Assembly (NCBI GenBank): GCA_965602225.1
Contig: CBFCYE010000008.1
Location: 7,053-71,052, forward strand
Reading direction: 5' to 3'
Length of the DNA: 64,000 nucleotides
Source of the DNA: an uncultured Gammaproteobacteria bacterium
GTDB taxonomy: Bacteria; Pseudomonadota; Gammaproteobacteria; Tenderiales; Tenderiaceae
Shown here in pieces: positions 12,482-21,152 of this stretch (the stretch's first letter is position 1; the number at the start of each line of letters is the position of its first letter). The translations under genes were made by a program, and so were the position numbers. Below the pieces are notes generated by a model that saw only the letters and a list, made by a program, of their open reading frames with translations, was not told where the DNA came from and did no database searches.

Positions 12482-14146
12482 TTAATCACGCCCGCCACTT
12501 GATGGCCAGTAAGTCATTAATATCATTAAACCTATTCCACCTAACAACCAGGTAACAAAAGGTGCGTCGGCAACCATCCGCGGCGCATAACCATCCAGAC
12601 CGAGGATCACAGCGGCAGAAACAATCAGGCCTGTGGCAGCAATAGCGGCAAAGCTGCGCCGGCTTGCGGTTCGCACTTCACGCCGTAGTTTAACGATCTC
12701 TTCCGAGCGCCACTGCAATTCAAGCTCACCCTTTTGTGCCTGCTTGGCCAGATCATGAATCATAGCCGGCAATTGTGGCAGTATCTCGGCCCACATGGGT
12801 AGATTGGTCTTGAGATTTTTAAGCAGCGCTCGCGGCCCCAGCTGCTCGCTCATCCAGCGCTCCAGAAAGGGCTTGGCGGTCTGCCACAGATCCAGATCAG
12901 GATAGAGCTGTCGCCCCAGCCCCTCAATATTGAGCAGAGTCTTTTGCAACAGCACCAACTGCGGCTGGACCTCCATATTGAAACGGCGCGCCGTTTGAAA
13001 CAGGCGCAACAACAGATGCCCAAAAGAAATATCCTTTAGTGGCCGTTCGAAGATCGGCTCACAGACAGTGCGGATAGCCGCTTCGAATTCATCTATGCGT
13101 GTGCCACTCGGCACCCACTCTGACTCCACATGTAATTCGGCAACACGGCGATAATCGCGATTAAAAAAGGCCAGAAAGTTCTCCGCCAAATAGCGCTGAT
13201 CTTCATGGCTAAGCGTGCCCATAATGCCAAAATCAACCGCCAGATACTGGCCCTCGGGCGAGGCAAAGATATTGCCAGGATGCATGTCGGCATGAAAAAA
13301 ATTGTACTTGAACACCTGGGTAAAAAAGATCTCCACACCGCGCTCGGACAACTGCTTCAAATCCACATTCTGGCGCCGCAGCTCATCAATATTACCAATC
13401 GGAATACCCGAGATGCGCTCCATCACCATCACATTGCGACGGCAATGGGGCCAGTAAATCTCAGGAATATACAACTGATCTGAATCAAGAAAATGACGTC
13501 GCAGCTGCGAGGCATTGCCCGCCTCGCGCATCAGATCCAGCTCGTCGAGGATGGTCTTTTCATATTCACGCACCACCTCGACCGGCCGCAAGCGACGCCC
13601 TTCGCGCCAATAACGTTCAGCCAAACGGGCGACGATATAGAGCAGACTGACATCGCGTTTAATTACGCGCTTAATGCCCGGCCGTACTACCTTGACCACC
13701 ACATCAGTACCATCAAGCAAACGGGCAACATGAACCTGAGCAATGGAAGCCGAGGCCAACGGCATCTCATTGAATTCAGAAAAAACTTCATGAATCTCTT
13801 TTTTATAGGCCGCCTCAATCAGCTGCCGCGCCTGTGCGCCGGGAAAGGGCGAGACCCTATCCTGCAACTTGGCCAATTCGTCGGCAATATCATCCGGCAA
13901 TAGATCACGGCGAGTAGACAGGATCTGGCCAAACTTGACGAACAACGGCCCCAACTCTTCCAAGGCGCAACGAATCCGCTCGGCCCGCGGTGCCCGGTTA
14001 TGACGAAACCAGTGTGGCGGCCAGAAGTAGAGCAAAAAACTGAACGGCCGAAACAGATGGGTAGCAAAGATGACATCATCCAGACCGTGCTTCACCAACA
14101 CCCAGTGAATATGTAGCAGCCGCAGCAACTGACCAAAGCTAATCAT
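12482..14146 (-). CDS. ubiB: ubiquinone biosynthesis regulatory protein kinase UbiB (ABC1/ADCK family)
   Basis: 554 aa with the ABC1 kinase-like core and C-terminal transmembrane helices, in the ubiE-ubiJ-ubiB operon order. Confidence 0.95.
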
Positions 14147-14784
14147 GTTTGGTCTGCCTCGCTTGATTTAATCTGGGGTTTGAGCTGCGCCTGCAGACGT
14201 TTAACCCGCTGGGCCATGCGATCGACATCGGAACGCAGTGTATCGACGCGATCGAGAAATTGATCCAACTCCGGCTTGACCACCAGGTCACGGCTCTCTT
14301 CCTGAAAATACTCAGCCACGTCACGCCCCAGAGTCTCGGCCGTTTTACTGCCCCAGCTAAACAGCTCACGCACCGTATTACCAAGCTGATGAGCAATCAC
14401 ATCACCACTGAAATGGGAAAGCTGTTCTTCCCAGTCCAGATCAAGACTATCGAGGATATGCTGAACCTTGCGCCCCAGCTGGGCATCGCCCGCCATCTCG
14501 ACACCATCACCGAAGACGCTGGCAGGATGATCACTCAGCCCCAGCCGCGCCAGACTAAAAGGGCCGCCCTTGATGGTCACGTCCGCCTCACCCTCAAAGA
14601 CACTCTGCACTCGCAGGCCATCGGCAGTAGGGACGAGATAGATTGATTTGCCCAGACCGGCAATCGCCAACGCAATCACCTTACCCTCAAGCCGAGTCAC
14701 CTGGACCAGAGTCTCTGGGTCCATGTGCAGACAATGATTGAGCGCCTTTTCCAGCGCAGCGGTGGCTAACAGAGGCAAGACCAT
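14143..14784 (-). CDS. ubiJ: ubiquinone biosynthesis accessory factor UbiJ (SCP2 domain)
   Basis: 213 aa with an SCP2-like N-terminus, lying between ubiE and ubiB; 4-nt overlaps on both sides indicate translational coupling. Confidence 0.85.
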
Positions 14785-14786
14785 CT

Positions 14787-15539
14787 TTAGAATTTGTAAC
14801 CTCGGTGCAGAGCAACAATACCGCCGCTCATATTATGAAAATCACAGCGCTCGAAACCGGCTGTCTGCATCATCGTTTTTAATTCTTCCTGACCCGGATG
14901 CATGCGGATCGACTCGGCCAGATAACGGTAGCTGTCTTCGTCGTTGGCAATCAACTTGCCCATCAACGGCAACAGCTTGAATGAATAGGTGTCGTAAATC
15001 GGTTTCAGACCCGGCACCGCTGGCTTGGAAAACTCCAGCACCAGCAGACGGCCACCCGGTTTGAGGCAACGAAAAATGGACCGCAAGGCCAAGTCTTTAT
15101 CGGTGACGTTACGCAGGCCAAAGGCCATGGTGACGCAATCAAAATAGTTGTCAGGGAAGGGTAAGTACTGGGCATCGGCCTGGACAAAACGGACATTGCC
15201 AACAATGCCTTTATCCATCAAACGATCACGACCATTGCCGAGCATAGCGCCATTGATGTCAGACGAAACCACCTCGCCCTTACTGCCCACCAGCTTCGAT
15301 AGTTTGACCGCCAGGTCGCCGGTACCAGAGGCCAGATCCAAGGCGCGCTGGCCGGGCTTAAGGCCTGTCATCTCCATAGTGAAACGCTTCCACAGCCGAT
15401 GCACCCCAAACGACATCACATCATTCATGACATCGTATTTGTCCGCTACCGAATCAAACACCTCACGGACCTTTCCAGCCTTTTCTTCCAGCGGCACCTG
15501 CTTAAAACCAAAGTGGGTGTTCTTTTGTTGTTCAGTCAT
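14787..15539 (-). CDS. ubiE: bifunctional demethylmenaquinone / 2-methoxy-6-polyprenyl-1,4-benzoquinol methyltransferase
   Basis: 250 aa with the SAM motif [11 protein letters not shown] and the ending ...[12 protein letters not shown] typical of UbiE. Confidence 0.95.
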
Positions 15540-15937
15540 TTTTCTGATTCTTCAGTTTGTGGCGTCGCCATAGCAAGTGACAGATGCTGATGACCCGCTG
15601 CTTCTAGCCGCGCCAAATAATCCTGCCACATCTGTTGCTGATTCTGGCCATAGCGATACAGCAGATTCCAGTCGTAGAGACCGGTGTTATGGCCGTCATC
15701 AAAATAGAGCTTGATCGCGTACTGCCCCACCGGTTCTATGGCAACGATATTGACGCCCTCCTTGCCCACCTGCAACACCTCCTGACCAACGCCATGACCA
15801 CGCACTGCGGCCGAAGGAGAATGAACGCGCAGAAACTCACACGGCAGCTTGAAGGTGGCACCGTCGTCGAACGAAATCTCCAACAGATGAGACTTCTGAT
15901 GCAGACGAATATCCGTCGGTATGGGCATGTTCATCAC
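15536..15937 (-). CDS. DUF971 family protein (gamma-butyrobetaine hydroxylase-like N-terminal domain)
   Basis: 133 aa, conserved upstream of ubiE in pseudomonads; the pattern LEISFDDG...LR.HSPSA fits DUF971. Confidence 0.7.
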
Positions 15938-15950
15938 TAACCGCTCCGTC

Positions 15951-17270
15951 TTAAAGGATGTAACGACTCAGGTCTTCGTTATGAGCCAACTTATCCAGCT
16001 GTGAATCAACATAAGCAGAATCGATAATCAGATTGCTACCCGACTTATCTGGCGCTTCGTAAGAGATCAGCTCCAACAACCTTTCCATTACCGTATGCAG
16101 ACGACGGGCGCCGATGTTCTCAGTGCGCTCGTTGACCTGCCAGGCAATCTCGGCCAGACGGGCAACACCATCCTCGGCAAATTCCAACGTCACCCCTTCG
16201 GTGCCCATCAGGGCGCTATATTGTTCGGTCAGAGAGGCATCCGGCTCGGTGAGGATGCGGACAAAATCTTCTGTCGTCAGCGCATCCAGTTCGACCCTGA
16301 TCGGCAGGCGACCCTGCAGTTCCGGCACCAGGTCAGATGGCCGAGACATGTGAAACGCACCCGAAGCGATAAATAGAATGTGATCTGTCTTCAACATGCC
16401 GTGTTTGGTCGAGACAGTACAGCCCTCCACCAACGGCAACAGGTCACGCTGCACCCCTTCACGCGAAACATCGGTACCGGAGGTCTCACCGCGCTTGGCA
16501 ATCTTATCCAGCTCATCAAGAAAGACGATGCCGTTCTGCTCGGCGCTAAACAGCGCCTGAGTCTTGATATCGTCCTCATTGACCAACTTGGCAGCCTCTT
16601 CTTCCACCAGAAGTTTGTAGGCCTCTTTGACCGGCAGCTTGCGGGTCTGCAATTTACCGTTGCCCATGTTCTGGAAGATATTCTGCAGCTGACCAGTCAT
16701 GTCTTCCATTCCCGGTGGCCCCATGATTTCCACGTTACCGGCTGGCGCAGCAACTTCGACCTCAATCTCACGCTCATCCAGCTCACCTTCACGCAACTTT
16801 TTGCGAAACACCTGGCGCGTCGACGAACTACGGCTCGCCTCTTCATCACCACGAGCCGGTGGCAGCAGGATATCAAGCACTCTATCCTCGGCCGCCTCTT
16901 CAGCACGAAAACGCACCTCTTTTTTGGCCTGCTCACGAGTCATCTTGATTGAAACATCAACCAGGTCACGAATGATGGACTCAACGTCACGACCAACATA
17001 ACCAACCTCGGTAAACTTGGTCGCTTCCACCTTGATAAAGGGCGCATTGGCCAGCTTGGCCAGGCGACGGGCTATCTCGGTCTTGCCCACGCCAGTGGGG
17101 CCAATCATAAGGATGTTTTTAGGCGTGATTTCATTGCGCAGCGATTCATCTACCAAGCCGCGGCGCCAGCGATTACGCAGGGCGATGGCCACGGCGCGTT
17201 TGGCAGCAGCCTGACCGATGATGTGTTTGTCCAGTTCCTGGACGATCTCTCTTGGTGTCATCTCTGACAT
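15951..17270 (-). CDS. hslU: ATP-dependent protease ATPase subunit HslU
   Basis: 439 aa with Walker [16 protein letters not shown] and I-domain. Confidence 0.95.
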
Positions 17271-17933: not shown

Positions 17934-19598
17934 TTAAGCCGAATCAGCGACGATCTGATTACGACCATCCTGCTTGGCCTTGTAGAGCATCTGGTCAGCG
18001 GCTTCACGCAACTCGCCAGCATCTTCAAACGGCGGCGCAACAGCAATCCCGCCGCTCAAGCAAACCTTAAATATCTTTCCAGCAGCATGATGCTCAAGCG
18101 CAGCAAAACTCTGACGCACCTCTTCCATCACCTCCACCGCGGCCTGCAAAGAGGTTTCAGGCATAATCACCGCAAACTCTTCACCGCCATAACGGCCAAT
18201 GATATCCGTTCCACGCAGACGCTGTTTCAACAGCCGCGACAGGCTTTTGATAACCCGGTCACCAACTGCATGACCATAATTATCATTGACCTGTTTGAAA
18301 TGATCGATATCGAGCATGGCATAGGCAAGCTGACCGCCATGCCGCACTGCCCTTGCCACCTCGTTATATAGATTCTCCATAATACGACGGTGATTTAGCA
18401 GACCTGTCAGACTGTCTTCCGACATACGCGAACGAAGATTGCGGTAACGCTCGGCACGGATAGAAATCGAAGCAATCAAATCAGCTGACTTGATCGGTTT
18501 GGTAAGAAAATCATCCCCGCCCATGCTCAGCGCCTCAAGCTGGATATTCCGGTCAGTCTCGGCAGAAAGAAATACGATGGGTAAACCCAGGTAGTCCGGT
18601 TGCTGCCGAATCACTGAGGCCAGTTCGACACCATTGCAGTAAGGCATATACATATCCATTAACACCAACTCGGGCGAAAACTCCTTGATGGCAGCCAGCA
18701 CCTGACCAGCCTCAACAACAACCTCAGCTTCCATCCCGGCCTGGGCCAGCACACTGGAATAAAACAGCGCCTGCGGCTCAGAATCATCAACGACCAAAAC
18801 TCGATAGGGACGAACCGCTTCCACCACGGCCAGCTGATCAACCATATCCAGCAGCGATTCAAAGACAAATGGCTTTTTGAAATAGGCACGCCCACCGACT
18901 CGAACCGCTTCCAGCCTGGCCTCAAAATCATCACGCGTAGAGATAAACACAACCGGGATAGGCTCAGCTCGCTTGCCATTAATCGAGCGAATCACATCAA
19001 TACCCGCCAGCGCCCCCTCCACCATGACGATGTCAGCGATGATTATCGCCGGCGCTTGCCGTTCTACAGCCACCTTCAACTCCGATGGTGTCGCAAACAC
19101 TTCTGCTCTGTAACCAAAATATTCAAGCTGGGCCGCCAACTGAATGCGGCACCCGGCCTCATCTTCAAGAATATAAACCGTCTTCCCTGCCTGCATATCC
19201 TTTGGCTGAGACTGGGACTCGTGCGCTACAGGCAGCTCAGGCTCAACATAGGCATCCTCACCAGCCACCTGGATGGCAAGCCGAATCTCGTTCAGCAAAC
19301 GCTCGACTTCAGCCAGATCCTTGGCCGACTCAGCCGAAACCAACTGTTTTTCGAGCATCCGCGCCACCTGGCTTAGCGCCTCGCAGCCAAAGGTCGCCCC
19401 TGCCCCGGTCAGGGAATGCGCCAGACGATGGAACTCGGCCAGCTCAGTCTCACCCCAGCCTAGCCTCCAGGCCGCCAGACCAGCCTCCAAAGCCGCTAGT
19501 CGTTGCGGTAACTGATCAATAAAATTCCGCCGCAAGGCCTCAAGCTGTATTTTCAGTTTGTCTACATCCACGATCACGCAAACCCCACAAAAAAACAT
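17934..19598 (-). CDS. Hpt-REC-REC-GGDEF response regulator (diguanylate cyclase)
   Basis: N-terminal Hpt (FHRLAHSLTGAGATFG), two receiver domains (VYILEDE..., VLVVDDS...LMDMYMP) and a GGDEF domain with an intact RYGGEEF motif. The exact start codon is uncertain. Confidence 0.85.
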   Translation of the reverse strand: MFFCGVCVIVDVDKLKIQLEALRRNFIDQLPQRLAALEAGLAAWRLGWGETELAEFHRLAHSLTGAGATFGCEALSQVARMLEKQLVSAESAKDLAEVERLLNEIRLAIQVAGEDAYVEPELPVAHESQSQPKDMQAGKTVYILEDEAGCRIQLAAQLEYFGYRAEVFATPSELKVAVERQAPAIIIADIVMVEGALAGIDVIRSINGKRAEPIPVVFISTRDDFEARLEAVRVGGRAYFKKPFVFESLLDMVDQLAVVEAVRPYRVLVVDDSEPQALFYSSVLAQAGMEAEVVVEAGQVLAAIKEFSPELVLMDMYMPYCNGVELASVIRQQPDYLGLPIVFLSAETDRNIQLEALSMGGDDFLTKPIKSADLIASISIRAERYRNLRSRMSEDSLTGLLNHRRIMENLYNEVARAVRHGGQLAYAMLDIDHFKQVNDNYGHAVGDRVIKSLSRLLKQRLRGTDIIGRYGGEEFAVIMPETSLQAAVEVMEEVRQSFAALEHHAAGKIFKVCLSGGIAVAPPFEDAGELREAADQMLYKAKQDGRNQIVADSA

Positions 19599-19740
19599 TT
19601 TAAATCAATAATATATTACTGCACCCAAGTATCAACCCAAGCCACAGCTTTTCGAGCCCACAAAAAGCACATTAGAAGACTTTAATATAAAACTAAGCAT
19701 GCCGATATATATAGTAGACAAGCTTGCGCGGGGAAAAGAC

Positions 19741-20811
19741 ATGATCATCACCAACTCTCAAATTGGCCTGAGCAGCCAACACCAAAAAACCGAACACAGT
19801 GTCGAGCGCGAACGACTGCGTGTATGGATCGACAACCCCGGCCAGCCTGCTCGCCAACCGGCCACACAAGGCGCAGCCCGTTTCCGCACCGACCAAGCCG
19901 ATATCTCCGCCAGGGCCCACGCCGCCCAACCAATCAAAAAAGCGGCCGAACTGGAAGAAGAAACCGCCCCCATTGCCGTAACCAAGCTACAGGCCCTGAT
20001 CCAGATGATCGAACGCCTAACTGGCAAGAGGATCAAGTTCTTTGATCCAAAAGAAATGCACGACAAGAACAGGACTGAAACAAAAGACCTTGAAGCCCCA
20101 GCCAGGAGCGAACAACAAACACCACGCCGCGCTGGTTTCGGCATCGAATACGATTTTTACAGCGCCCGCATCGAACAAGAACAGACCAGCTTTTCCGCCC
20201 AGGGTCTGGTCAAAACCGCCGACGGCAAAGAGATCAGCATCGCCATGGAGCTGAATATGAGCCGCCGTTTTATGGAAGAGCAAAGCATTAGCATCCGCGC
20301 CGGCGATGCCGCACAACGACTGAAAGACCCGCTGGTTCTGAATTTCAACGGCAACGCCGCCGAGCTGAGCGAAACAAAATTCAGCTTCGATCTCGATGCC
20401 GATGGCCGTGAAGAACAGATCTCTTTGCTGGATTCAAACAGCGGCTTTCTTGCCCTGGACAAAAACATGGATGGCAGCATTAATGATGGCACCGAGTTAT
20501 TCGGCGCCCAATCGGGCAACGGCTTTGCCGATCTAGCCGCCTATGATGAAGACGGCAATCAATGGATAGATGAGGCCGACCCCATCTATTCCAAACTGCG
20601 CATCTGGAGCCGCGACGCTGATGGCAACGAGCAGTTGTTTGCCCTGGGCCAGAAAGATGTCGGCGCCATCTATCTCGGCAACGTCAGCACCGCCTTTGAC
20701 CTAACCCAAAACAGCGATAATGCACTGCTTGGCCAAATCGCCAGCACCGGTCTGTTTCTGAAAGAGAGTGGTGGCGCGGGCACAGCGCAACAACTCAATC
20801 TGGTTGTCTGA
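19741..20811 (+). CDS. hypothetical protein with EF-hand/dockerin-like Ca-binding-type loops
   Basis: The C-terminal half contains DLDADGREEQISLLD, DKNMDGSINDGTE, YDEDGNQWIDEAD and DADGNEQ motifs resembling EF-hand or dockerin calcium loops. There is no signal peptide. The start is placed at MIITNSQ (the track ORF begins at 19699). Confidence 0.5.
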   Translation: MIITNSQIGLSSQHQKTEHSVERERLRVWIDNPGQPARQPATQGAARFRTDQADISARAHAAQPIKKAAELEEETAPIAVTKLQALIQMIERLTGKRIKFFDPKEMHDKNRTETKDLEAPARSEQQTPRRAGFGIEYDFYSARIEQEQTSFSAQGLVKTADGKEISIAMELNMSRRFMEEQSISIRAGDAAQRLKDPLVLNFNGNAAELSETKFSFDLDADGREEQISLLDSNSGFLALDKNMDGSINDGTELFGAQSGNGFADLAAYDEDGNQWIDEADPIYSKLRIWSRDADGNEQLFALGQKDVGAIYLGNVSTAFDLTQNSDNALLGQIASTGLFLKESGGAGTAQQLNLVV

Positions 20812-21152
20812 ATATGAGGGGCCCGCTGTGCATTTATAGACCTCATCGCTACAAGCTATATGCTCCTGCAGCATTTAGGCCTGCAACAGCCTTCACTCTA
20901 TAATTCCGCCCCACACTCCCTTACAATCAAAAACGCCACCATCTGCACGATAGGCCTGGAATTAGCAACAGGCTTCATTTGAATGATCAACCCAGCCACT
21001 CAGGCAACAAACACTAAAAAAATCAACACCTAACAACATATTGCCCGGCGCAATTAACACGACTGTTAAGCCATATTTCAAAGCAAGGCTAGCGACAATC
21101 CCCACAAAGCCCTATTATGAAAAAACCAACAATAAATGAAGGAGAGAACTCG

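Follow-up and report, generated by a model that had tools for sequence, protein, structure and literature searches.

Within a 64,000-nucleotide stretch of contig CBFCYE010000008.1 (GenBank assembly GCA_965602225.1, positions 7,053 to 71,052 of the forward strand), which derives from an uncultured gammaproteobacterium of the family Tenderiaceae and is hereafter called the window, a plus-strand gene starting at position 19741 encodes a 356-residue protein composed of two parts. A beta-rich N-terminal domain (DUF8379, M1-D196) is fused via an invariant Asp-Pro pair to a minimal C-terminal self-processing module (SPM, P197-V356) of the kind described in FrpC. The protein belongs to a family that spans at least five phyla and whose upstream regions carry matches to sigma-28-type promoters. 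Taken together, these features incline us toward a composite reading, in which a protein of the late flagellar regulon would be exported in an unfolded state and calcium-triggered cleavage by the SPM would arm its N-terminal domain. A preliminary description of the locus had regarded the product as an orphan, cytoplasmic protein with EF-hand- or dockerin-like calcium loops and as a possible partner or target in cyclic diguanylate (c-di-GMP) signaling.

The C-Terminal Half Is a Self-Processing Module

In Neisseria FrpC, calcium folds an otherwise unfolded SPM of 177 residues, whereby the D414-P415 bond is strained and attacked by the Asp side chain, leading to cleavage and to an aspartic anhydride, which a lysine can trap as an Asp-Lys isopeptide in a process termed clip-and-link (PMC7078468). 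The structure of this module contains four calcium sites, namely three EF-hand-like loops and one composite site, and a transient fifth site is formed by D414, D478, and D579. Of the mutants of these residues, D579N is fully active, D579A is dead, and D478A is strongly impaired (PMC7078468).

The C-terminal 160 residues of the window protein are a module of this type (PF26745). A phmmer search of the PDB with the single sequence matched the entries 6sjw/6sjx at E=7.8e-6, and a family profile of 23 sequences matched the FrpC SPM at E=3.2e-12. Identity to the FrpC SPM is 26-29%, and both alignments begin exactly at the Asp-Pro of the query, paired with D414-P415. With Foldseek, 6sjx was the sole significant match in the PDB (E=1.6e-6, probability 1.00, target-normalised template modelling score 0.54, 134 columns), and the AlphaFold model, with a mean predicted local distance difference test score (pLDDT) of 61.7, reaches values of 74-93 over residues 232-356. 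Homologs furthermore bear the precomputed Pfam labels PF26745 (SPM) and PF28292 (DUF8379), both of which are newer than our local Pfam copy and were read only as such labels.

Local Pfam-A and NCBIfam profile scans returned nothing for the window protein at E<=1, the EF-hand and dockerin profiles included, and a PADLOC scan likewise gave no match. The earlier statement that the protein has no nameable family is correct for the local profile collections and incorrect as far as the FrpC module is concerned. Its calcium loops are EF-hand-like in their chemistry only; the domain is neither an EF-hand pair nor a dockerin, and its fold is that of the calcium-binding SPM, not a well-characterised fold without calcium. 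Among the PHROGs, the protein weakly matched phrog_3677, annotated as "protease" (E=0.002, residues 196-291, covering the Asp-Pro site and the first calcium loops). This phage family has 1125 positions, of which positions 76-179 were matched, hinting at SPM-like modules in phage proteins.

For a residue-level comparison, the FrpC SPM, whose last 18 residues were rebuilt from the primers printed in PMC7078468, was aligned with 100 family members that share about 45% identity overall. All of the Dx[DN]xDG-type loops noticed in the preliminary description (DLDADGREEQ, DKNMDGSINDGTE, DEDGNQWIDEAD, and DADGNEQL) are present, and three of them align with experimentally defined calcium sites of the FrpC SPM (PMC7078468). 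The liganding positions of the D462-E474 and D499-D510 equivalents are conserved in 91-100% of the members, with D240/N242/E252 and D269/D271/N273/D280 kept at 99-100%. Because they are conserved in 100 homologs, the loops are far beyond chance. The third EF-hand-like loop, equivalent to D521-E532 and the fourth of the loops in the window protein, is three residues shorter than in FrpC, with the D523 equivalent kept in 77% and the G526 equivalent in 98%. The so-called port residues L475, G477, and G491 have equivalents in all members, and that of W519 is present in 98%.

Two calcium sites of FrpC, the fourth (D419-G424 with D456) and the transient fifth (D414/D478/D579), are not conserved here. 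On the other hand, the family has an invariant FDxDxDG loop where FrpC has FDHNRDG, which has not been described as a calcium site, and this extra loop may compensate for the missing ones. The C-terminal strand follows the pattern QQxDLxV-stop, in which FrpC D579 pairs either with Q351 (Gln in 82%) or, with a shift of two residues, with N353 (Asp in 82%, Asn in 18%, the window protein having Asn). The protein is likely to possess a functional SPM that cleaves itself in a calcium-dependent manner.

A Conserved N-Terminal Domain and a Widespread Family

A sequence search with the window protein found more than 5000 homologs at E<=1e-3, so that the protein is not an orphan, and its open reading frame (ORF) is real. 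The closest of them are proteins of gammaproteobacterial metagenome-assembled genomes (MAGs). With a profile of the N-terminal domain alone, 2208 cluster representatives at 50% identity were retrieved, 1243 of them at E<=1e-10. In these representatives, which are proteins of about 350 residues, the domain invariably occupies the N-terminus from residue 1 onward, and shorter matches look like fragments at contig ends. Full-length members measure 335-404 residues, the SPM part accounts for 158-168 residues (100 members), and the protein terminates three residues past the last SPM strand.

Eighty loci, referred to below by L numbers, were fetched from species-representative genomes. Full-length members are spread over at least five phyla, with carriers among Gamma- and Betaproteobacteria, Desulfobacterota, Myxococcota, Nitrospirae, Firmicutes, Thermotogae, and others, and the Firmicutes carriers include one complete genome (L056, CP130740). 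Cultivable hosts of the family include Methylobacter tundripaludum SV96, Hydrogenophaga defluvii, Sulfurimicrobium lacus, and Desulfosediminicola flagellatus. As the hosts comprise both monoderm and diderm bacteria, a secretion route restricted to Gram-negative bacteria is ruled out. One Syntrophomonadaceae MAG (CTOTU19814) has two DUF8379-SPM paralogues on different contigs (L017 2124-3203 and L083 8113-9219), one of them near fliD/fliC.

Whether modelled within the full protein or as residues 1-196 alone, the N-terminal domain shows the same elements, namely three long beta-hairpins (residues 3-30, 133-159, and 164-187; pLDDT 75-93), a helix (77-94) that ends in an invariant ExLTGK motif, and a disordered linker that varies within the family. 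E91, T94, G95, Y137, E145, E147, F151, T159, D161, G162, R175, R186, and G188 are among the invariant residues. A FlgM- or FlaG-like nature of this domain, prompted by a VxLSxxAxxxQP...LTGKKIK motif and by a position upstream of fliD in one genome (L035), was not supported: hhalign of the domain profile against E. coli FlgM gave a probability of 0.1%, Pfam scans of 14 N-terminal domains at E<=10 yielded no FlgM or FlaG match, and no Pfam flagellar family was matched by the protein or by these domains.

With regard to composition, Cys makes up 0.10% of the family proteins vs 1.17% of neighboring proteins, and 57 of 72 family members are free of Cys vs 68 of 747 neighbors. Both halves are acidic, with net charges of -7 for the N-terminal fragment and -14 for the SPM. 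Family proteins lack Sec/Tat signals as well as a C-terminal type I secretion system (T1SS) tail. The absence of a signal peptide, already proposed in the preliminary description, is borne out by the low hydrophobicity of the N-terminus, where the maximal Kyte-Doolittle mean over 12 residues within the first 57 amino acids is 1.62 (72 members). The combination of Cys depletion, acidity, and a non-hydrophobic N-terminus resembles that of exported proteins and points outward.

The Gene Start and a Predicted Sigma-28-Type Promoter

The ORF at 19699..20811 on the plus strand is present as previously described, and its real start is, almost certainly, not the ATG at 19699 but the one at 19741. This choice is made because the homologs begin there, because the Shine-Dalgarno-like GGGGAA precedes it, and because the predicted -10 promoter element overlaps the upstream ATG. 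All close homologs start at this position (96% query coverage, lengths of about 355 residues), the Met at 19741 is shared as start by homologs at 48-100% identity, and one database protein (P0001, 356 residues) is 100% identical to the window protein. No Shine-Dalgarno-like element was seen 5' of the ATG at 19699. The intergenic region shared with the divergent neighbor is therefore 142 bp long rather than the 100 bp given earlier (Table 1).

Sigma-28 recognises the consensus TAAAGTTT-N11-GCCGATAA in the case of E. coli FliA, and TAAA-N15-GCCGATAT in the case of B. subtilis SigD. Upstream regions were scored, out of 12, for two boxes, TAAA and GCCGATAA, separated by a spacer of 14-16 nt. Scores of at least 11 were reached by 25 of 71 family genes vs 3 of 903 control genes (Fisher p=1.2e-27), and scores of at least 10 by 47 of 71 vs 27 of 903. 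At the latter threshold, controls of strand and position gave 2 of 71 on the antisense strand and 2 of 71 in the 200 nt downstream. The core CCGATA alone occurs in sense orientation in the upstream 200 nt of 33 of 72 family genes vs 30 of 903 other genes. Nine loci match the TAAA/GCCGATAA boxes perfectly (12/12), and one, L078, reproduces the E. coli consensus TAAAGTTT-N11-GCCGATAA in its entirety. Among the remaining loci, many carry a TCAAG...GCCGTTAA pattern, which we take to be a proteobacterial sigma-28 variant. The high scorers come from five phyla, comprising Gamma-/Betaproteobacteria, Desulfobacterota, Nitrospirae, Firmicutes, and Thermotogae.

In the window, GCCGATAT lies 33 nt 5' of the ATG and is conserved as -10 element in L088 and L089. 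When the intergenic region is aligned with those of four close relatives, conservation outside the ribosome-binding site and the start codon lies mainly in the ATGCCGATAT block. Control of the family by sigma-28 appears very likely, and control of the window gene itself appears reasonably probable. For the divergent GGDEF-side gene, a sigma-70-like site is found on the minus strand at 19635..19608. Instead of the common promoter region proposed earlier, the two genes thus most likely have separate promoters, sigma-70-like on the minus strand and sigma-28-like on the plus strand.

Two further sites of this type were observed in the window. A gene for a methyl-accepting chemotaxis protein (MCP; 38048-40078, plus strand) is preceded at a distance of 28 nt by TAAAG-N15-GCCGTTAG (37993-38020, 10/12), which is consistent with a motile organism that uses FliA-type promoters. 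The best match just upstream of any gene start in the window, TAAA-N15-GCCGATAG (43994-44020, 11/12), lies before a plus-strand gene at 44134-45234 that encodes two cyclic-nucleotide-binding domains and a rhodanese domain; this gene may be a member of the FliA regulon, or the match may be due to chance.

Table 1. Features of the DUF8379-SPM gene and its upstream region, in window positions.
Feature	Position	Strand	Basis or remark
Predicted sigma-28 (FliA/SigD)-type promoter: -35 TAAT (19683-19686), 14-nt spacer, -10 GCCGATAT (19701-19708)	19683..19708	+	Sequence reading
Shine-Dalgarno-like GGGGAA	19730..19735	+	5 nt 5' of ATG 19741
Coding sequence of the 356-residue DUF8379-SPM protein, stop codon included	19741..20811	+	Homolog starts
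N-terminal domain M1-D196 (DUF8379), which would be set free on cleavage, with a reactive Asp at its C-terminus	19741..20328	+	Predicted models
Predicted scissile Asp196-Pro197 bond (FrpC D414-P415)	20326..20331	+	Alignment start; Asp and Pro invariant in 100/100
SPM, P197-V356, ending 3 residues past the last strand	20329..20808	+	phmmer, family profile, Foldseek, precomputed PF26745
NFNGNA, degenerate counterpart of FrpC calcium site 1 (D419-G424)	20341..20358	+	N419 equivalent in 99%, others variable
DLDADGREEQ, family-specific DxDxDG loop, predicted extra or replacement calcium site	20389..20418	+	F216/D217/D219/D221/G222 invariant; Q226 in at least 90%
DKNMDGSINDGTE, EF-hand-like loop (FrpC D462-E474), followed by the ELFG port residues	20458..20496	+	D/N/D/G/E in 91-100%
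DEDGNQWIDEAD, EF-hand-like loop (FrpC D499-D510)	20545..20580	+	Positions 1, 3, 5, and 12 at 100%
W289 (FrpC W519) and shortened loop DADGNEQL (FrpC D521-E532)	20605..20637	+	Trp in 98%
Loop DADGNEQL itself	20614-20637	+	FrpC D521-E532 equivalent
C-terminal strand QQLNLVV (FrpC beta14, G578-D579-L-L-L582), which in FrpC packs over the scissile bond	20788..20808	+	Alignment

Genomic Context: Flagellar Neighbors and the Diguanylate Cyclase

Gene order independently favors a flagellar link in that, in several genomes, the family gene lies among late flagellar or chemotaxis genes. The order is SPM-family gene, fliD, fliS, FlgN-like gene in Pelotomaculum (L035) and flgK-flgL...fliD-fliS-orf-SPM-family gene in a member of the Selenomonadales (L038); in Syntrophomonadaceae (L015 and L083) the gene adjoins fliS, fliD, and fliC, and in Thermotogae (L044) it is near fliG and fliI. 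In Eubacteriaceae (L055/L056) it abuts cheY-MCP-cheW-cheA, and in Sulfurimicrobium lacus (L001) it is flanked by two MCP genes. Most proteobacterial loci, that of the window included, are found in housekeeping contexts. The flagellar cluster of Pelotomaculum also contains an ORF of 1757 residues with flagellin-like termini, a giant flagellin (L035 2033-7306).

No conserved operon partner emerged from the clustering of 636 neighbor proteins, which gave only lineage-specific synteny (HrcA/ferrochelatase/GrpE, M18 peptidase, and SLT clusters) and generic clusters of the response regulator receiver (REC)/histidine kinase and ABC ATPase superfamilies. The upstream gene is divergent in 43 of 75 loci and the downstream gene convergent in 48 of 73, while upstream gaps to genes on the same strand are at least 53 nt long. 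The family gene is thus usually monocistronic and without a conserved partner.

The divergent neighbor in the window (17934..19598, minus strand) is indeed an Hpt-REC-REC-GGDEF protein, of 554 residues, as had been recognised before. Its proposed relationship with the SPM gene in c-di-GMP signaling is not supported for the family. GGDEF genes account for only 13 of 1065 neighborhood genes (1.2%) across 79 loci and are adjacent in 5 loci from 3 lineages, and adjacency of an Hpt-REC-REC-GGDEF gene is seen only in the window and in close relatives with the same synteny (L002, L088, and L090). In another relative, L089, a stand-alone Hpt gene of 107 residues (3499-3822) lies beside an intact SPM gene and the GGDEF part is absent, and in L090 an extra Hpt-like ORF (2925-3335) is located between the cyclase and the SPM gene. 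Within the window clade it is the Hpt part rather than the GGDEF part that stays beside the SPM gene. A c-di-GMP partnership as a property of the family is rejected in view of the scarcity of GGDEF neighbors and of L089, and we take the diguanylate cyclase to be a lineage-specific neighbor.

A Proposed Mechanism and Its Alternatives

In the mechanism that we propose, the gene would be transcribed under sigma-28, late in flagellar assembly. At the very low free calcium of the cytoplasm the SPM would remain unfolded, by analogy with FrpC, and the protein would be exported, most plausibly via the flagellar type III export apparatus. This route is favored because it is the one means of export common to monoderm and diderm hosts, involves no cleavable signal, and requires unfolded substrates; we give it an even chance or slightly less. 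Outside the cell, ambient calcium would fill the loops and the SPM would fold, thereby straining the D196-P197 amide, which would be attacked by the Asp side chain. The SPM of 160 residues would then depart and leave an N-terminal fragment of 196 residues with a C-terminal aspartic anhydride. Calcium would in this way serve as a cue of location, outside vs inside, and not as a second messenger.

The anhydride could either be hydrolysed, which would amount to plain release or maturation, or form an Asp-Lys isopeptide with a nearby lysine, for which the conserved K96 of the family itself or a flagellar or surface protein are candidate acceptors. In the latter case the protein could be a natural "NeissLock" of the flagellum, which after exposure to extracellular calcium would staple DUF8379 onto a lysine of the filament, cap, or hook surface, of another copy of itself, or of whatever the flagellum touches. 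We regard this extension as speculative and on the unlikely side. If true, flagellar biology would gain a covalent modification or adhesion step not known so far, and an SPM would for the first time have a function outside RTX (repeats-in-toxin) toxins.

A number of observations weigh against the composite reading, in which cleavage, its need for calcium, the linking reaction, control by FliA, and export are inferred throughout. Concerning the module, the pLDDT falls below 50 over residues 190-231, the region around the Asp-Pro site. The W451 equivalent is Phe in 73% of members and Leu in the window protein, the D478 equivalent is Pro, Ala, or Thr, and FrpC calcium site 1 (DLDGDG with D456) is degenerate, reading N-F-x-G-x-A with Ser in place of D456 in 96%; the shortening of the fourth loop by three residues adds to this list. 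With these features of FrpC not conserved, the kinetics or the calcium affinity could differ, or cleavage could have been lost. Concerning the promoter, the window site (TAAT-N14-GCCGATAT) scores 10/12, as do 34 sites in the 64-kb window, and is not significant when taken alone. Known late genes of the same loci (fliC, MCP, cheA, and motA) score 7-10/12, which may be due to operon-internal positions or mis-called starts; the two-box scan is specific, yet no calibrated or sensitive detector of the regulon. Concerning flagella and export, the window contains an MCP gene and no flagellar structural genes, some hosts are labelled as usually non-flagellated lineages (Bacteroidota, Dehalococcoidia, and Myxococcales MAGs), and the N-terminus is modelled as a structured beta-hairpin and not as a disordered type III secretion signal. 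In the hosts from usually non-flagellated lineages, the sigma-28 motif is absent, with scores of 6-8 where scored.

Among the alternatives, a cytoplasmic calcium switch deserves the most attention, although we consider it improbable. Here, a rise in calcium would fold the SPM and irreversibly free or activate the N-terminal domain for the motor, the chemotaxis array, or the Hpt-REC-REC-GGDEF pathway. The protein has neither a signal peptide nor a transmembrane segment, che/MCP genes adjoin the family gene in L001, L055, and L056, and an Hpt-containing gene does so in all five members of the window clade. Moreover, many members of sigma-28 regulons are cytoplasmic, including Che proteins, MCPs, and c-di-GMP enzymes. 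Nevertheless, irreversible self-cleavage makes a poor signaling device, the adjacency of GGDEF genes is not kept beyond close relatives (with the GGDEF part gone and the SPM gene intact in L089), and the ten-fold depletion of Cys together with the acidity resembles exported proteins. In addition, the FrpC SPM is unfolded in the calcium-depleted cytosol and folds only in the calcium-rich exterior (PMC7078468). The cytoplasmic location assumed in the preliminary description is likewise rendered doubtful by the sigma-28 promoters, the position in late flagellar clusters of some phyla, and the strong Cys depletion.

A protein that is exported or released and binds calcium for purely structural reasons is, in our estimate, an even weaker candidate. 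Its SPM would have lost self-cleavage and act as a calcium-dependent folding or stabilising domain, similar to RTX blocks, with a structural role for the Asp-Pro pair. The replacement of D478 by Pro, Ala, or Thr, given that D478A strongly cuts processing in FrpC, fits this idea, as do the loss of Trp at W451, the degenerate calcium site 1, and the shortened fourth loop. However, both Asp and Pro are invariant in 100 of 100 members over at least five phyla at about 45% identity, and the equivalents of L475, G477, and G491, the port residues enclosing the scissile bond, are conserved throughout. In every case, furthermore, the module forms the extreme C-terminus, from which it could be removed as a unit, as in engineered binder-SPM fusions (PMC7846742, PMC12538545).

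A calcium-activated pore-former or toxin, whose freed domain of long amphipathic beta-hairpins would oligomerise into a gasdermin- or aerolysin-like membrane pore, for instance on membrane damage or phage infection, is very unlikely, the fold matches in its favor being sub-threshold only. Finally, despite the SPM homology and the name "VCBS repeat-containing" that NCBI gives to some members, a truncated, FrpC-like type I-secreted RTX relative is scarcely credible and was rejected, given that the GGxGxD nonapeptide occurs in 0 of 100 SPM parts and 0 of 79 full-length proteins, that the protein stops three residues past the SPM and has no secretion domain at its C-terminus, that no T1SS genes recur nearby (the sole ABC cluster being of the Opp/Dpp type), and that full-length members are found in monoderm Firmicutes.

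Other Features of the Window

Downstream of the SPM gene, a plus-strand gene at 21117-21698 encodes a Ribosomal_S30AE/HPF domain (residues 17-118) fused to a C-terminal cold-shock domain (CSD, 131-192); in L002, L088, and L089 an ATP-sulfurylase gene takes the place of this HPF-CSD gene. Further along on the same strand, a ribonucleotide reductase of the Ribonuc_red_lgC family (23591-25744, 717 residues) is free of inteins and accompanied by a separate TSCPD gene (25774-26469). Its orthologue in L002, a 60%-identical relative, is 1421 residues long (12712-16977) and contains two intein/LAGLIDADG insertions.

The region 29986-37900 comprises an ORF of 492 residues without a Pfam family, a multi-TPR/YfiO-like protein of 944 residues, a TPR protein of 209 residues, a MotA/ExbB-family proton channel (35262-35912), and an ORF of 321 residues without a family. 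Together these genes resemble an energised envelope system of the Tol/Exb type that includes uncharacterised components. Across positions 1-64000 every 2-kb bin has a negative GC skew (cumulative -3.9) and the AT skew is mostly positive, so that the entire window lies on one replichore, with a C-rich plus strand.

Significance and Comparison with Known Systems

Since the SPM is known and both halves of the protein are catalogued in Pfam, the finding is not categorically new. What is new is the fusion of a compact, C-terminal SPM to the conserved DUF8379 in several phyla and its tie to the late flagellar regulon; the literature that we searched contains no mention of DUF8379, of a stand-alone or non-RTX SPM, or of a link between SPMs and flagella. 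The SPM is one of very few modules that make a reactive anhydride from ordinary amino acids, and it forms the basis of NeissLock ligation. In the published view it is found exclusively in some of the very large RTX toxins made by Gram-negative pathogens (PMC7078468). The present family constitutes a second and much larger natural habitat, made up of thousands of small proteins without RTX repeats, in which the SPM is placed as C-terminal leaving group behind DUF8379. If our reading holds, it would add a new and widely conserved late flagellar gene, suggest that a calcium-gated covalent reaction takes place at the flagellum or the surface of the cell, and offer protein engineers a large set of natural variants of a compact SPM (159 residues, with different calcium sites).

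With EF-hands and dockerins the family shares 12-residue loops of the DxDxDG type, which bind calcium via positions 1, 3, 5, and 12. The loops differ in being set within the mostly beta fold of the SPM instead of paired helix-loop-helix units, and the expected output is the cleavage of a peptide bond rather than reversible sensing or cohesin binding. Self-catalysed backbone chemistry that proceeds without a separate enzyme and leads to a reactive intermediate or a covalent cross-link is also common to inteins and Hedgehog proteins, the NPTH autocleavage of FlhB, and the isopeptides of Gram-positive pilins and SpyCatcher. The folds are unrelated, and in our family the intermediate would, as in FrpC, be an Asp anhydride formed at Asp-Pro through calcium-induced folding.

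Several proteins other than filament components are exported by the flagellar type III secretion system, such as FlgM and, in Campylobacter, FspA, FedB, and the Cia proteins. What the family has in common with sigma-28-dependent late genes and flagellar-exported proteins is the TAAA-N15-GCCGATAA promoter, a small, Cys-poor, partly disordered product without a signal, and, in some genomes, fliD/fliS/fliC as neighbors. It has no sequence or profile similarity to FlgM or to the Pfam flagellar families, and its export is inferred. To our knowledge, no protein of the flagellar regulon is known to contain a self-cleaving calcium module.

The closest relative, the FrpC SPM, agrees with the present module in sequence, fold, the Asp-Pro at its N-terminal edge, the EF-hand-like calcium loops, the port residues, and the W519 equivalent, and the same behavior is expected here, with an unfolded state in the absence of calcium and cleavage and anhydride formation in its presence. 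All previously described SPMs lie inside RTX proteins longer than 1000 residues (the FrpC and ApxIVA class), with RTX repeats and a T1SS signal on their C-terminal side, and are restricted to Gram-negative pathogens (PMC7078468, PMC3034196). In contrast, the module described here has about 159 instead of 177 residues, ends a protein of 356 residues without RTX repeats, lacks D478, W451, and calcium site 1 while possessing an extra DxDxDG loop, and is found in monoderm and diderm hosts with a tie to the flagellar regulon instead of iron or virulence operons. NeissLock and the self-excising tags based on SPMs (PMC7846742, PMC12538545; Sadilkova 2008, as cited in PMC3034196) have the same order as the family proteins, consisting of a cargo or binding domain, the Asp-Pro junction, and the SPM, which departs from the C-terminus on addition of calcium and thereby arms the cargo with an anhydride. 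Whereas those tags are laboratory constructs, the DUF8379-SPM protein is a natural and widespread counterpart with a cargo of its own.

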